From: an uncultured Bacilli bacterium
GTDB taxonomy: Bacteria > Bacillota_I > Bacilli_A > RF39 > UBA660
Direction: 5' to 3'
NCBI GenBank assembly: GCA_944331955.1
Contig: CALVIY010000003.1
Span: 4,412 to 68,411 of the forward strand
Length of the DNA stretch: 64,000 bases
Position 1 is the stretch's first letter. Every line of letters starts with the position of its first letter. Both the position numbers and the translations under genes were made by a program. Below, in pieces: positions 3,045-41,409 of this stretch. The notes under the pieces are model-generated. The model was not told the origin of the DNA, ran no database searches, and saw only the letters and a list, made by a program, of their open reading frames with translations.

Positions 3045-3256
3045 TAAATTTAAAAAAATATATGTAAATTTTTGTTGATATTAAAGGTTTTCCTTGAGTT
3101 TACGAAAACTCGTACTTGTAACTTTTCGACTTTTATTATATATTGTTATTGGGAATGAATTTTCCTAGTCATCTAACTCTCTTTACCATCTTATTTTTTG
3201 TTTTAAAGTCGCCCAATTAAACAAAAAAAGAAGAGTTTAGATGACTCTTTTATTTT

Positions 3257-4042
3257 TTAGACTAATTTATGTATTTTTCTATACATTTTTGCACTTTCAA
3301 CTTTTATTCTTTCTTCATCTTTTAGACTATCTATTAAAACATCAAAGTAAGGTTTAGAACAATCAGTACTTAAATAACTATATAAAAGATTATATATTTC
3401 TTTATTACGTTTAAAAAGGCTAAAAAGACTATTAACATCATTTGTCCTATCATCGATAATATTTTCAAAATTTATGCCATATATTAAAGATAAATTAGTT
3501 AAAGCATGTTTTAATTTGTCAATATTAGAGTTTGGTCTTAGTATTTTACCATTTAAAGCTAGTTCATAATGCGATTCTGCTTTCTTGGGATAATTTTTAG
3601 TTACAGCATCAAAGTCTATTAAATGACCACCATCTTTATCCATAAGACTATTAGATAAAGCGATATCGTTTAACAAAAATCCTTTATTATGTATTTCTTT
3701 TAATTGTTTAGTACAATCAAGTACCGCCTTTACTCTTTCTTCATGCGTAAACATATCTCTATTAATAATATAATCAAAAGCATAAGAATTAGGAAAATAA
3801 GACATAATAAAACCTTGTAATTTATCATCTACTTTATACTCCTCAATAGGGTAACCACTACCTTCAATCTTTTTCTCACCCAATAACTCCATTATAGTAG
3901 ATTCTTTTTCTAAACTTATATTTCTAATAACTTTAATAACAGTACCGTCTTTTAATGCTTTATGAGTGGCAAGAAAACCAAAACCACCTTCTTTATTAGG
4001 TATCTTTTCAATAAAACAAGATTCTCTAAAACTTATATTCAT
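3257..4042 (-). CDS. protein-kinase-like fold protein (atypical Ser/Thr or small-molecule kinase)
   Basis: Has a GGFGF glycine-loop-like segment, VIKV Lys, a catalytic-loop-like NDIALSN (DxxxxN) and DFD in place of DFG. A bidirectional hairpin lies at 3231-3247. Confidence 0.5.
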   Translation of the reverse strand: MNISFRESCFIEKIPNKEGGFGFLATHKALKDGTVIKVIRNISLEKESTIMELLGEKKIEGSGYPIEEYKVDDKLQGFIMSYFPNSYAFDYIINRDMFTHEERVKAVLDCTKQLKEIHNKGFLLNDIALSNSLMDKDGGHLIDFDAVTKNYPKKAESHYELALNGKILRPNSNIDKLKHALTNLSLIYGINFENIIDDRTNDVNSLFSLFKRNKEIYNLLYSYLSTDCSKPYFDVLIDSLKDEERIKVESAKMYRKIHKLV

Positions 4043-4104
4043 AATATCCCCCTTAAAAGTACTATATAAAATACCACAAAATTAATAAAAAAGCAAGTTA
4101 TACT

Positions 4105-4132
4105 TTGCTAAATAAAAAAATTACTGTATAAT
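4105..4132 (+). promoter_or_regulatory. sigma-A type promoter of hisS
   Basis: TTGCTA, 16-nt spacer, TGtATAAT. The leader is only ~25 nt, so there is no room for a T-box. Confidence 0.6.
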
Positions 4133-4157
4133 ATCAGGTAGAAAGAAAGGGATTAAT

Positions 4158-5468
4158 ATGATTAATAAACCAAAAGGAACAGTTGATTTAACTGATAAGA
4201 AAGCAAGAATTTGGAAATATGTAGAAGAAGTAATTGATTCATGTATGGAAAAGTATAACTATAATTATATTAGAACACCTATATTTGAATCTAGTGAATT
4301 ATTTCATAGAGGAATAGGAGATTCTACTGATATAGTTACTAAAGAAACATATGACTTTAAAGATAGGGGAGATAGACCTATTACCTTAAGACCAGAAGGA
4401 ACAGCAGGAGTAGTTAGAAGTTATATAGAAAATAAAATGTATGGTACTCATAATTTACCTGTAAAAGTTTATTATAATGGAACAATGTATCGTTATGAAA
4501 GACCTCAAAAGGGAAGATTACGAGAACTTAGCCAATATGGAGTAGAAGTAATGGGTAGTAGTGATCCAATGATGGATGCAGAAGTTATTTCACTTGCATA
4601 CAACATTAATAAAATGTTAGGACTAACTGATACAGTAGTACATATTAATAGTCTAGGAGATAAAGAATCTCGTGATAAATATAGAGAAGCCCTAAAAAGC
4701 TATTTTAAGCCTCATTTAGACGATTTATGTGATGATTGTAAGGAAAGATTCGATAAGAACCCTTTAAGGATTATAGACTGTAAAATAGATAGTAATAAAG
4801 ACTACTTTAAAGATGCTCCTAAAATATTAGATTATCTTAATGATGAGAGTAAAGAGCACTTTGAAAAGGTGTGTGAGTATCTTGATTTATTAGAAGTTAA
4901 ATATGAAATAGATCCTAAAATAGTAAGAGGACTTGACTATTATAATCATACTGTTTTTGAATTAATGACAGAAAATAATAACCTTGCCTTAGGTGGAGGA
5001 GGAAGATATGATAATCTAGTTAGTATGCTAGATGGACCGGAAACACCATGTGTAGGTTATGCAGTTGGACTTGATAGATTAGTTGATGAGATAATAGAAA
5101 GAGATATAGATAATGTTAGATCCGATATAGATGCTTTCATTATGTATGTTAATGAAGATGAAAAAAGAAATGCAATTTATCTTGCTAATGAACTTAGAAT
5201 GTCAGGTTTTGTAGTAGAAACAGAATATACTAAAAGAAGTTTAAAGAGCCAGTTTAAAAGAGCAGATTACTTTAATAGTAAATACTTAATACTACTAAAC
5301 AGTGATGATTTAAATGAAGGTTTAATTACTATTAAAAATAATAAAACTAAAGAAGAAGAAAAGATTATGATGGAATATATCATTTACTACTTTGATGAAC
5401 ATATAAGTGATGATAACCTACCTGTAGATGAAGAATGTACTTGCCATGAACATAATCATGACGAATAA
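4158..5468 (+). CDS. hisS: histidine--tRNA ligase
   Basis: Class II HisRS motifs are present (RPEGTAGVVR, YRYERPQKGRLRE, GGGGRYD, GYAVGLDRL). There is an unusual Cys/His-rich C-terminal tail. Confidence 0.95.
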   Translation: MINKPKGTVDLTDKKARIWKYVEEVIDSCMEKYNYNYIRTPIFESSELFHRGIGDSTDIVTKETYDFKDRGDRPITLRPEGTAGVVRSYIENKMYGTHNLPVKVYYNGTMYRYERPQKGRLRELSQYGVEVMGSSDPMMDAEVISLAYNINKMLGLTDTVVHINSLGDKESRDKYREALKSYFKPHLDDLCDDCKERFDKNPLRIIDCKIDSNKDYFKDAPKILDYLNDESKEHFEKVCEYLDLLEVKYEIDPKIVRGLDYYNHTVFELMTENNNLALGGGGRYDNLVSMLDGPETPCVGYAVGLDRLVDEIIERDIDNVRSDIDAFIMYVNEDEKRNAIYLANELRMSGFVVETEYTKRSLKSQFKRADYFNSKYLILLNSDDLNEGLITIKNNKTKEEEKIMMEYIIYYFDEHISDDNLPVDEECTCHEHNHDE

Positions 5469-38728: not shown

Positions 38729-40138
38729 TTATATTTCTTCAATCTTCATTAAGTTAGTAATTCTCTTAGTTTCAGTGTTAGGAAATCCTCCAGTAATTAC
38801 GATTAAATCTCCTTCATTAAGTTCCATAAACTCTTTAGCTTTCTCAACACTCTTAGTTAATACTTCATCAGTTGTATCTAAGAATGGTAATGTATCTGCA
38901 TAAACACCCCAGTTTAAAGCTAAACGTCTACCAGTCTTCTCATCAGTACATAAAGCAAGTATTGGAGCATCTGGTTTTAAATTACTAATAACTCTTGCAG
39001 TTCTACCACTAATTGTAGCGGCACAAATTAATTTAGCACCTAAAGCATCTGTACTAAGTACAACATTAGAAGCAATAGATTTAGTAATATTATCTAAGCT
39101 TTCAATATCAAAAGCATAATCAAAACTTGCATATTTTTCTGTAGTTTCACAAATATTAGCCATAGCAGCAACTGTTTCTATTGGATGCTTTCCTACAGTA
39201 GTTTCACCACTTAACATAACAGCATCAGTACCATCTAATACTGCATTAGCAATATCACTAGTTTCTGCTCTTTTTGGACGAATATTATCCATCATTGTCT
39301 CTAACATTTCAGTAGCAACAATAGATATTTTTCCAAGTCTTCTGCAAGTATTAATCATTTGTTTTTGATAGATTGGAACCATTTCACTAGGTACTTCAGT
39401 ACCAAGATCACCACGTGCTACCATAACACCATCACTAACACTTAAAATATCTTCTAAGTTTTCAATACCTAAAGCACTTTCAATCTTACAGATAATTTGT
39501 AAGTCTTCTCTATTATGTTCTTTTAAGATTTCTTTAACTTCTAAAACATCTTCTTTGCTAGATACAAAAGATAAAGCAAGGAATTCTCCACCATGTTCAC
39601 AAGCATAAATGATATCTTCACGATCAACATCACTTATATATGGAATATTAAGTTTAATACCAGGAACGCTCATACTCTTACGATTTCCTAATACTCCTCC
39701 ACTAATAATCTTACATGTAACTCTATCCTCATACTTGTGGGTAACTTCAAGTTTCATCTTAGCATTCTCTAATAAGATAATATCACCAACATTAAGAGAA
39801 TCAATTGCACTTGGATGATTAACAGAAAATCTTTCTTTAGTACCAGTAACAGTTTCTTTAACTATATCAATAGTCTCTCCTCTTACAAGTTCAATAGAAT
39901 CATTTTCCATAATTCCACATCTAAACTCTGGACCTTTAGTATCCCAAAGAATAGCTACATTCATACCAGTTCTTTTTCTAACTTCACGAACTGATGCACA
40001 AGCTTTTTTCCTTTCTTCTATAGTAGCATGAGAAAAGTTAATTCTTGCTACATTCATTCCTGCTAATACCATTTTTTCCATTACATCTACTTCATTACTA
40101 GCAGGACCTATACTACAAACTATTTTTGTCTTCTTCAT
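38729..40138 (-). CDS. pyk: pyruvate kinase
   Basis: TKIVCSIGPA, MNVARINFSH, MVARGDLG and GETTVGK motifs. Own TGcTATAAT -10 at 40172-40180 on the minus strand. Confidence 0.95.
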   Translation of the reverse strand: MKKTKIVCSIGPASNEVDVMEKMVLAGMNVARINFSHATIEERKKACASVREVRKRTGMNVAILWDTKGPEFRCGIMENDSIELVRGETIDIVKETVTGTKERFSVNHPSAIDSLNVGDIILLENAKMKLEVTHKYEDRVTCKIISGGVLGNRKSMSVPGIKLNIPYISDVDREDIIYACEHGGEFLALSFVSSKEDVLEVKEILKEHNREDLQIICKIESALGIENLEDILSVSDGVMVARGDLGTEVPSEMVPIYQKQMINTCRRLGKISIVATEMLETMMDNIRPKRAETSDIANAVLDGTDAVMLSGETTVGKHPIETVAAMANICETTEKYASFDYAFDIESLDNITKSIASNVVLSTDALGAKLICAATISGRTARVISNLKPDAPILALCTDEKTGRRLALNWGVYADTLPFLDTTDEVLTKSVEKAKEFMELNEGDLIVITGGFPNTETKRITNLMKIEEI

Positions 40139-40337
40139 TTTTTACTTCACTCCTTCTAATCAAGCTATATAATTATAGCATAGTTTGATTAAAATTAAAA
40201 GAGTATTTTTCTTAAATCACATTACGAAAATCCGTAACTAATTTATTACATTTCTCTTACTATACATAAATCAATATGATACTATTTATATAGAGAACAT
40301 TTGATGGTTGGGTGGGCCTCAGAAAGGAGGCTAATAT

Positions 40338-40430
40338 ATGAACAAGAAAGATTGCTTAATTTCTTCCTTAATCATCATATTATTTCTTCAAAATCTCATA
40401 CTTTTATTCATGATACTTGCTTTAATATAG
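40338..40430 (+). CDS. candidate type I toxin: 30-aa hydrophobic peptide, below ORF-track cut-off
   Basis: MNKKDCLISSLIIILFLQNLILLFMILALI. AAAGGAGG SD 7 nt upstream, sequesterable by GCCTC/GAGGC. TGaTACTAT -10 at 40277-40285. Long 5'-3' fold-back pairing (40293-40320 with 40488-40523). Confidence 0.6.
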   Translation: MNKKDCLISSLIIILFLQNLILLFMILALI

Positions 40431-40551
40431 AAGAAACCACCTAGCTCAGCAATGATTTAGGTGGTTCTTAACATAATTTTATTATTCGAGGCCACTCAAC
40501 ATGCCATTATTAAGTGTTCTCTCTTTTTTAGTTTATGTAAATTCCTTTTAC
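40428..40551 (-). ncRNA. candidate antisense antitoxin sRNA (sRNA1)
   Basis: Near-consensus minus-strand promoter: TTGACA (40586-81), 17-nt spacer with TG, TACTAT (40563-58). 5' hairpin ATGTAAA/TTTACAT. Ends at the shared hairpin 40434-40468 followed by a T-rich run. Homologous promoter and RNA at 52809-52963. Confidence 0.6.
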
Positions 40552-40590
40552 ATATTCATAGTATCATAAATATTAACTTTTGTCAAAAAA

Positions 40591-41409
40591 TTATTTTTGA
40601 CATTTAGGACAATAGTAAGTTCCTCTTCCGCCTACTTTAGTAACAATAAGTTTCTCTCCACAATTAGGACAAATACCATCTTTTTTACCGTGAACAGATA
40701 GTTCATTTTGAAATAAGCCATGTACTCCTTCTGCAGATGTAAAACTTTTAATAGTAGTTCCACCCATAGTAACAGCTTTATCAAGTATTATTTTTGTATT
40801 TTTAATGATAGCATCCGCTTCCTCTATACTAATACTATCTGCTTTCCTTAAAGGATTAATATGACTTGCAAAAAGTATCTCATCATCATAAATATTACCA
40901 ATACCAGTAATAATAGATTGATCAAGTAAAGCTGTTTTAATAGGCACTTTCTTCATTCTTAAAGCTTCTAATAAATAATTAGGGGTTAAACTCTTATCAT
41001 AATACTCCAATCCTAAAAGAGAAAGTGGCTTTAAATTATAAACTTCTTCTTTTGGTAAGCAAGACATTTTCCCAAACTTTCTAACATCATTAAATCTCAT
41101 ATCAGTATTATCATCAAAAGTAATAATAACATGTTCATGCTTTTCTTTAGGTACACTAGGATTTCTAAAAAAGAACTTTCCTTCCATCCTTAAATGACAT
41201 ATTAAAGCTTTAGTAGTAAGAAATATTACTATCCATTTACCTCTTGTAGTAATAGACTCTATCTCTTCACCAACTAAATCCTTCTTAAACTTATCTATAT
41301 CACCAATAATTATATTATCCCAGTACACATCTACTTTCTTAATAGTTTTACCTATAATAATATGTTCTAATGTCTTACTAACTGTAATTACTTCTGGTTT
41401 TTCAGGCAT
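40591..41409 (-). CDS. mutM: formamidopyrimidine-DNA glycosylase
   Basis: N-terminal MPEKPEV. C-terminal zinc finger CPNCG...CPKCQ. Confidence 0.92.
   Translation of the reverse strand: MPEKPEVITVSKTLEHIIIGKTIKKVDVYWDNIIIGDIDKFKKDLVGEEIESITTRGKWIVIFLTTKALICHLRMEGKFFFRNPSVPKEKHEHVIITFDDNTDMRFNDVRKFGKMSCLPKEEVYNLKPLSLLGLEYYDKSLTPNYLLEALRMKKVPIKTALLDQSIITGIGNIYDDEILFASHINPLRKADSISIEEADAIIKNTKIILDKAVTMGGTTIKSFTSAEGVHGLFQNELSVHGKKDGICPNCGEKLIVTKVGGRGTYYCPKCQK

Follow-up and report, generated by a model that had tools for sequence, protein, structure and literature searches.

The question raised by contig CALVIY010000003.1 of an uncultured Bacilli bacterium is what occupies the 452-bp spacer that separates the genes pyk and fpg. 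The window analysed here is the whole stretch of 64,000 nucleotides taken from this contig (G+C ~25%). An earlier reading of its letters (the original prediction) had proposed that the spacer holds a type I toxin-antitoxin (TA) locus, with a short open reading frame (ORF) behind an occluded Shine-Dalgarno (SD) sequence, an mRNA whose 5' and 3' ends fold back on each other, and a convergent antisense RNA. Our comparative analysis shows that the ORF, the fold-back, the convergent promoters and the antisense hairpin/terminator are conserved, and only the proposal of a bidirectional terminator had to be given up. The spacer almost certainly contains a real, conserved sense/antisense small-ORF module. 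As judged from sequence, this 300-base module is probably a true type I TA system, and we regard it as an autonomous, type I TA-like cassette that represents a previously undescribed family. The coordinates of all features are collected in Table 1.

The features on which the proposal was built could be retraced in the window. The 30-codon ORF is preceded by a strong SD (AAAGGAGG); the GCCTC of the leader is complementary to the GAGGC at the SD; the 5' segment is complementary to the 3' segment (GAGGCCACTCAACATGCCATTATTAAGTGTTCTCT), which is followed by six T; and the proposed −10 box, TGATACTAT, is present. On the opposite strand, TTGACA, a 17-nt spacer with TG, and TACTAT match the promoter consensus at 10 of 12 positions. 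The two extended −10 boxes form an inverted repeat (I1). The separate promoter assigned to pyk (TGCTATAAT) is also there.

Relatives were sought with Fpg as a handle in a scan at one genome per species, which yielded 80 loci. All were from metagenome-assembled genomes (MAGs) of uncultured gut 'Bacilli/Tenericutes', including Candidatus Onthousia from chicken gut; Fpg identity among them was up to 96%, and the element adjoins pyk in 16 of them (orthologous pyk-fpg spacers). When metagenomes were scanned for the conserved 5' arm GAACATTTRATRGTTRRGTG, 92 stretches were obtained. After filtering, 78 distinct full-length elements of 217–271 nt were retained; their sources are gut metagenomes and uncultured gut Bacilli of low G+C that are related to Candidatus Onthousia. 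One of the 78, the chance pattern match L137, was dropped from our own scripts and is still a row of alignment A1, from which the pairs were counted.

The original prediction had staked itself on conservation of the ORF and of compensatory base pairs in homologous loci, and both were found. An SD-preceded ORF is present in 72 of 76 elements, with SD and ATG kept at the correct spacing, and specifies 62 distinct peptides of 25–31 amino acids (mode 27; 30 in the window). Among 37 distinct 27-codon ORFs the pairwise differences at codon positions 1, 2 and 3 were 0.317, 0.139 and 0.428, and 40% of the differing codons were synonymous. All 68 elements compared are open in frame 0, whereas frame +1 is interrupted in every one (open in 0/68); a near-invariant T recurs every third base, at codon position 2, as expected from the NTN codons of hydrophobic residues. 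By this substitution pattern the ORF is a gene.

The predicted mRNA is highly structured. RNA 40291-40531 has a minimum free energy (MFE) of −67.9 kcal/mol, compared with −43.3±4.3 kcal/mol for shuffled sequences (z = −5.76, a value reached by none of 200 shuffles). The 5'-3' helix appears in the MFE and centroid structures alike. When the unedited MAFFT alignment was submitted to RNAalifold, this long-range helix (the clamp) was the only consensus structure. Pairs were counted over a structure of 40 pairs, composed of the clamp helices H1, H2 and H3, a leader hairpin and a mid hairpin. Paired cells made up 94.9% of the total, against 35–46% with the partners slid by 1–3 columns; both-sided changes occurred in 19 of the 40 pairs, and the covariation score was 0.216 (0.05–0.09 for the slid controls; 0 of 500 shuffles reached the observed values). 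The fold-back and the leader and mid hairpins thus carry compensatory changes well above shuffled and slid controls. The helices H1, H2 and H3 were paired in 98.0%, 99.1% and 81.3% of cells, with changes that include G-C to A-U and G-U to A-U. Examples are column pairs 3/304 (GC 59, AU 14, GU 3), 42/68 (CG 25, UA 15, GU 9, AU 8), 209/243 (CG 22, UA 20, GC 19), 9/298 (UG 45, UA 32) and 28/278 (GU 58, AU 13, GC 7). The mid hairpin (11 pairs) was 95% paired, with both-sided changes in 9 pairs. The clamp belongs to the plus-strand RNA, because in the opposite strand its G-U/A-U pairs would turn into C-A mismatches. The 78 divergent sequences hence provide a covariation-supported model of the mRNA of a putative toxin.

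The convergent promoters of the original prediction are conserved at fixed positions on both strands. Of 74 elements, 54 carry a strict TG-extended sense promoter (controls: 4 for the opposite strand and 1.3 for shuffles). The −10 box of this promoter ends 7–10 nt before GAACATTT, from which spacing the transcript is predicted to start at the first base of the clamp. A U-run adjoins the last base of the clamp, and alignment columns 305–315 are T-rich in most of the 78 elements. On the antisense side, a strict TG-extended promoter was recognised in 53 of 76 elements, with control values of 0 (same strand) and 0.9 (shuffles); for 65 of the 76 the −10 box ends 32–38 nt past the 3' arm. From these signals we infer that both strands are transcribed. 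Promoter-like and hairpin-like sequence can arise by chance in DNA with a G+C of ~25%, and the 1-kb region holds 4 promoter-like matches where 6.1 are expected after shuffling; as an account of the locus, chance has a negligible probability and is already refuted by the comparative data, given fold z-scores of −5.8 and −4.8 for the two strands and 78 homologous copies in which covariation and positionally fixed promoters stand far above the controls.

The antisense RNA has a structure of its own. The minus-strand RNA 40551-40425 folds at −33.5 kcal/mol (z = −4.81). The mid hairpin, formed by AACCACCTA and TAGGTGGTT, had been described as a terminator shared by both strands, but family-wide it is followed by 7.4 U per 10 nt on the minus strand and by only 3.1 T per 10 nt on the plus strand, which rules out a bidirectional function. 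The mid hairpin is therefore predicted to end the antisense RNA, and transcription of the mRNA has to continue past this hairpin if the 3' arm is to be made. The predicted antisense RNA is fully complementary to the 3' untranslated region (UTR) of the mRNA, including the 3' arm. It also contains a local hairpin, the complement of the two halves of the 3' arm, in which the share of paired cells is 95.7% for the minus-strand reading and 75.2% for the plus-strand reading. Column pair 283/293 is U-G in 73, C-G in 3 and U-A in 1 of the minus-strand sequences, whereas just 4 of 77 plus-strand sequences could pair there; at 279/296 all 77 minus-strand sequences pair, compared with 30 of 77 for the plus strand. 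Selection has therefore kept a structure that can form only in a minus-strand transcript. This hairpin has a loop complementary to the unpaired bulge that separates H1 from H2 in the closed mRNA, which would make the loop a natural site of first contact.

The last bases of the 5' arm (xGCC, columns 35–38) co-vary with two partners, namely the 3' arm and the flank of the SD. For the SD flank, column pair 36/76 reads AU 25, GC 24, GU 16 and other 7. For the 3' arm, pair 36/272 reads GC 31, AU 11 and GU 7, many of the 19 'other' cells being misaligned rows of type C (see below). The two pairings of the anti-SD are mutually exclusive. In the window, the three co-varying sites correspond to 40316-18, 40329-31 and 40490-92. 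Such three-way covariation, with one anti-SD and two alternative partners, is rare and indicates a conformational switch in the modelled mRNA. Opening energies of the SD were computed with ViennaRNA for 68 elements; those with a picked ORF of more than 32 amino acids, including two with a wrong upstream ORF, were left out of the fold statistics. Opening the SD required 4.24 kcal/mol in the free full-length mRNA, 6.71 kcal/mol with the 3' arm unavailable, as if bound by the antisense RNA, and 6.28 kcal/mol in a nascent transcript ending at the stop codon. Blocking of the 3' arm made the SD harder to open in 57 of the 68 elements and easier in 6. The effect was specific for the SD (+2.48 kcal/mol, compared with +0.05 in control windows of the ORF) and larger there in 59 of 68 (p = 2e-10). 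In the MFE folds of the closed form, the partner of the SD is the leader anti-SD in 32 of 68 elements and a CU-rich stretch of the ORF in 34. The MFE structure of the window pairs GGAGG with UCUUC of the ORF, and the CU-rich motif is found at ORF positions +36 to +40 in 49 of 68 members.

The element could in principle be a non-coding part of its neighbours, either the 3' UTR or terminator of fpg or a long pyk leader, with an incidental plus-strand ORF. Read-through from fpg would indeed cover the same region up to the mid hairpin, yet among 76 members only ~13 adjoin pyk and ~9 fpg, most lie in unrelated neighbourhoods (leuS-like, radical-SAM and permease genes on either strand are among the neighbours), and pyk has its own conserved TGCTATAAT promoter. 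The G-U pairs of the clamp, present on the plus strand only, and the period-3 conservation of the ORF with its synonymous changes and kept SD-ATG spacing are likewise hard to reconcile with such a role. The diverse gene contexts rule out a pyk leader or fpg 3' UTR, and we regard a neighbour-derived origin as very improbable.

Extra copies occur in tandem or nearby in L155, L095, L098, L143, L106 and L115 (nhmmer; L155 in the metagenome scan), and 3'-half remnants lie beside fpg in five loci (nhmmer). The diverse contexts and extra copies therefore characterise the element as an autonomous, mobile or duplicating module rather than a feature of pyk or fpg. The adjacent copies at L155 6867-7527 (a pair 429 nt apart), L095 2811-3372, L098 11519-11971 and L143 3674-4202 have diverged peptides and arms. 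In the uncultured gut Bacilli the cassette has a chromosomal location; neither a blastn search of plasmid and phage collections with the element nor a pattern scan of viral contigs gave a match.

Alignment of the pyk-fpg spacers (window 40139-40590 versus L001–L028) showed that both promoter regions and the outer clamp are ~95–100% identical. Three unrelated-looking types with distinct peptides (A, B and C) can be told apart in the core, which comprises the inner clamp, leader, ORF and mid hairpin. The arms are matched within a type (GGGTGGGCCTC with GAGGCCACTC, and GAGTGTTATCTCC with GGAGAAACACTT). Cognate variable arms pair at −6.14 kcal/mol and non-cognate ones at −4.38 kcal/mol (Mann-Whitney p = 6e-10), a comparison that was used instead of the H3 pair counts. 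This mosaic conservation suggests cassette exchange, or diversifying selection, inside conserved flanks. Exchange of the core, if true, would imply selection for diversified toxin-antitoxin specificity.

The peptides are built from a polar N-terminus (KKD) and a single hydrophobic helix. Residues K3, K4, D5, L7, L11 and L21 are conserved in at least 90% of them; L, I, F and V make up ~70% of all residues, Pro 0.1% and Gly 0.2%, and the peptide of the window has neither Pro nor Gly. A charged C-terminus is usually absent, most members ending in hydrophobic residues. The peptide is presumed to damage the membrane when in excess. Alternatively, it could be a harmless small membrane protein, for instance an accessory subunit or regulator of a membrane complex, which is tuned by a cis-antisense RNA without forming a TA pair. 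Conservation of the ORF, the mRNA structure and the antisense RNA say nothing on toxicity, and the positively charged C-terminal tail of most characterised Gram-positive type I toxins (PMC8309996) is missing; IbsC, ShoB and DinQ, however, are toxic without positively charged C-terminal residues (PMC8309996). A subunit or regulator is also difficult to combine with many unrelated neighbourhoods that share no constant partner gene, with tandem duplicates and decayed 3' remnants, with variant types swapped at a single locus, and with the multiple locks on expression (sequestered SD, 5'-3' clamp and a constitutive-looking antisense promoter). Such context, duplication, swapping and locking are typical of type I TA loci and not of subunit genes, and we consider a harmless protein unlikely.

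Besides the missing tail, several points weigh against a type I TA system with the proposed switch. The mean per-nucleotide unpaired probability of the SD was 0.15 in the free mRNA and 0.26 with the 3' arm blocked, so that a lowering of per-nucleotide accessibility by antisense binding is unsupported; because this cruder measure moved the opposite way, the switch is argued from the joint opening energy and the covariation. Helices H1 and H2 are very conserved in sequence, and their support consists mostly of one-sided G-U/A-U changes. The shuffle controls overstate significance, the family members being related. The region of H3 is misaligned between types A and C, and its pair counts are underestimates because MAFFT sets the H3 arms of the two types in different columns. 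Strict promoters are found in only ~70% of members, 4 of 76 copies are without an intact SD or ORF, and all hosts are uncultured and known from MAGs and metagenome contigs. With these points taken into account, we maintain the type I TA system as the probable identity of the cassette.

Those features of the class that can be read from sequence are represented as follows. A small, hydrophobic, membrane-type peptide (25–31 amino acids) is specified by a short mRNA (217–271 nt predicted); the T1TAdb paper gives size ranges of 20–60 amino acids for type I toxin peptides and 150–400 nt for their mRNAs. The mRNA is structured with a sequestered ribosome-binding site (RBS), as seen from the covariation and SD opening energies of 4.2–6.7 kcal/mol, and the antisense gene has its own promoter and terminator at the level of sequence. 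Multicopy or tandem intergenic occurrence, a common though not strictly defining trait of type I TA systems, is also seen in the family.

Among the several systems named in the original prediction, bsrG/SR4 from the SPbeta prophage of Bacillus subtilis (relatives txpA/RatA, bsrE/SR5 and yonT/SR6) has the nearest architecture. Both have a small hydrophobic peptide on a highly structured mRNA, an mRNA 5' end paired with a 3' segment in a long helix (~35 nt in bsrG, helix P1), an SD within a short helix and, as predicted here, a convergent antisense RNA over the 3' end of the mRNA. In bsrG, nt 1–35 pair with nt 232–262 in P1, and a helix of 4 bp contains the SD. Binding of SR4, which overlaps the 3' end, disrupts P1 and lengthens the SD helix to 8 bp, so that SR4 both blocks translation and promotes decay (PMC3834814). 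The same dual-action logic is predicted for the family from the three-way covariation and the increase of 2.5 kcal/mol in SD opening energy. The differences are considerable. The family peptides are shorter (25–31 versus 38 amino acids), start with the KKD N-terminus, lack the C-terminal lysine tail and show no sequence similarity to BsrG (hhalign probability 0.07%; hand-entered BsrG sequence). Both RNAs are also shorter (mRNA ~235 versus 296 nt; antisense ~110–125 versus 183 nt), the mRNA has no separate terminator stem-loop, the U-run following directly on the clamp, and the antisense terminator is located inside the mRNA 3' UTR, where it follows the stop codon immediately. While bsrG/SR4 resides in a prophage, the cassette of the family is chromosomal. 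The 3'-overlapping convergent antisense RNA and 5'-3' helix of the BsrG/SR4-TxpA/RatA group are thus found without homology in sequence; the family works like bsrG/SR4 on paper and, by sequence, is not a member of that group.

Other systems share parts of this design. In hok/sok (plasmid R1) and aapA1/IsoA1 (Helicobacter pylori), a 5'-3' interaction compacts the full-length mRNA, and hairpins that sequester the SD are predicted for the time of transcription; both are in common with the family, in which the nascent SD is also predicted to be closed. In hok and aapA1 the clamped mRNA stays inactive until trimming of the 3' end. In the family, by contrast, it is the 3' strand of the clamp that the antisense RNA would target, and the predicted effect of the clamp is to loosen rather than tighten the SD; moreover, the hosts of hok and aapA1 are Gram-negative and the peptides unrelated. 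The antisense RNA of these two systems is contained entirely in the mRNA span, 5' of the ORF in hok and overlapping the ORF in aapA1 (T1TAdb paper). With Fst/RNAII (par of Enterococcus faecalis pAD1) and the Fst/Ldr superfamily (Lpt, SprA1) the family shares Gram-positive convergent RNAs, a terminator hairpin in the overlap, a peptide of ~30 amino acids and an SD sequestered by an upstream helix. It lacks the (A)PxxxG(C) motif of Fst/Ldr (PMC8309996) and the charged C-terminus, and has no match to Pfam Fst or Ldr; the hhalign probability to Fst is 0.12% (hand-entered Fst sequence). In par the interaction takes place at 5' direct repeats outside the overlap (T1TAdb paper), whereas here the overlap would be the interaction region. 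ShoB (ShoB/OhsC, Escherichia coli) resembles the family in peptide style only, with 26 amino acids, a polar/charged N-terminus and an uncharged hydrophobic C-terminus; the hhalign probability is 7% over only 7 hydrophobic columns (hand-entered ShoB sequence). Antisense RNAs that overlap the 3' end are assigned to Gram-positive families in the T1TAdb paper, which fits the family described here.

A mechanism can be proposed in which the steps would follow each other in the order that we infer. In the nascent mRNA, the anti-SD (GCCUC) would close the SD. Once the free mRNA is finished, the first ~28 nt may pair with the last ~36 nt to form the clamp, and the 3' arm would capture the anti-SD; the SD would then be held loosely, and this would be the most translatable form. 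The first contact of the antisense RNA is probably made between its hairpin loop and the bulge of the clamp, and/or between the complementary loops of the mid hairpin. The antisense RNA could then pair with the whole 3' UTR and remove the 3' arm, so that the freed anti-SD would re-lock the SD. The resulting duplex of ~100 bp is a likely substrate of RNase III.

The original prediction placed the peptide outside the recognised families, and the searches agree with this. Rfam gave no match at E ≤ 10 for the window or at E ≤ 1 for six other members. With 36 family peptides at E ≤ 10, Pfam gave only scattered matches to unrelated transmembrane families and none to a toxin family; there was no profile match of these peptides to Hok, Ibs, TisB, Ldr, ShoB or the other families modelled in Pfam. 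NCBIfam, PADLOC and PDB yielded no relevant match, phmmer with the peptide of the window found none among 1.84 billion representative proteins, and an exact look-up of six family peptides, including that of the window, found none among ~15 billion predicted proteins. In a literature search, no paper linking type I TA systems with Erysipelotrichaceae was found. Type I TA systems are hard to find because their toxins and RNAs evolve fast and the ORFs fall below the length limits of gene callers. The class is still described as confined to Proteobacteria, Firmicutes and Tenericutes, and its members as found largely through their similarity to loci already known (PMC12390103).

A more far-reaching proposal, to which we give slightly less than an even chance, is that reduced-genome gut Bacilli (often binned as 'Tenericutes') contain a widespread type I TA family which has never been annotated, with this locus as its founding member. 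Its antitoxin would act by strand displacement, removing the 3' strand of the clamp so that the shared anti-SD re-locks the RBS, and its toxin/recognition core would be exchanged between strains within conserved promoter and clamp flanks. The dual-action mechanism has been demonstrated experimentally only for bsrG/SR4, and the family offers a testable generalisation of it. It also supplies a search pattern for the annotation of such loci in gut MAGs, and compact sense/antisense parts of a kind now reused as RNA devices (PMC12721322).

Table 1. Features of the pyk-fpg spacer and its surroundings (window coordinates) and peptides of the three core types.
Feature	Position	Strand	Remarks
Sense promoter	40257..40285	+	−35 TTACTA 40257-62, 17-nt spacer, extended −10 TGaTACTAT 40277-85
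Predicted start of peptide mRNA	near 40292	+	
Predicted peptide (putative toxin) mRNA	40292..40529	+	~238 nt, first base of 5' arm to T-run
5' arm of long-range clamp	40293..40320	+	helices H1, H2, H3
Anti-SD GCCTC	40316-20	+	final bases of 5' arm
SD	40323-40330	+	AAAGGAGG; flanking C at 40331
GAGGC	40327-31	+	can pair with anti-SD
30-codon ORF	40338..40430	+	product MNKKDCLISSLIIILFLQNLILLFMILALI
CU-rich TTTCTTC within ORF	40383..40389	+	candidate internal anti-SD of closed full-length mRNA, low certainty
Mid hairpin	40435..40467	-	AACCACCTA...TAGGTGGTT; predicted intrinsic terminator of antisense RNA
U-run after mid hairpin	~40434 to 40424	-	overlaps ORF stop codon
3' arm of clamp	40488..40523	+	GAGGCCACTCAACATGCCATTATTAAGTGTTCTCT
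Unpaired bulge of 3' arm	~40499-40508	+	between H2 and H1
Run of six T	40524..40529	+	directly after clamp; predicted mRNA end
Antisense promoter	40586-40558	-	TTGACA 40586-81, 17-nt spacer, TGaTACTAT 40566-58
Predicted antisense start	near 40551	-	
Predicted antisense (putative antitoxin) RNA	40426..40551	-	~125 nt, from promoter and terminator positions
Antisense-specific local hairpin	40494..40519	-	loop complementary to mRNA bulge
pyk promoter	40180-40172	-	TGCTATAAT
pyk	38729-40138	minus	
fpg	40591-41409	minus	
Type A peptide			MNKKDCLISSLIIILFLQNLI(L/F)LFMILALI
Type B peptide			MSRKDLLIVSLIIIILLLIKLLFLAI
Type C peptide			MSKKDFLVSTLLFIIILLIVLLFVVIIILI

The end of fpg is only 5 nt from the −35 box of the antisense promoter, and a minus-strand transcript leaving fpg would meet no terminator before the mid hairpin. 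Transcripts of fpg would therefore also carry the antisense sequence, with the same end. A housekeeping operon could in this way supply an antitoxin-like RNA.

Several loci depart from the common arrangement. In L018 (2449-2719), L127, L150 and L171 the SD (GGAAT, GGATG or GGAAG) or the start codon (ATA) is damaged, and the clamps and antisense promoters are intact; these may be decaying toxin genes in which the antisense side is retained. Several species (L019 4820-6405 and L005 4820-7434, also L017, L004, L003 and L020) have a pepC-like gene (Peptidase_C1_2, E = 3e-113) that separates the element from fpg. Beside fpg there is a 3'-half remnant of another element type, with hairpin, 3' arm, T-run and antisense promoter, and in L005 a DDE transposase splits the pepC gene. 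In L001 (~3100-5030) a reverse-transcriptase ORF (RVT_1, E = 2e-40; group II intron-like) has been inserted between the sense promoter region and pyk. Genes for tRNA are found near the 3' end of the element in L110 (335-405, minus strand, ~100 nt away) and L092 (49-122, plus strand, ~1 kb away), and this proximity may be a hint to the route by which the cassette spreads.

The pyk promoter is embedded in a conserved palindrome, GCTATATAATTATAGC (40154-40194; inverted repeats I4 and I10). This palindrome is almost invariant in 14 of 16 aligned orthologous spacers, the exceptions being L005 and L001, and a regulator of pyk could use it as operator.

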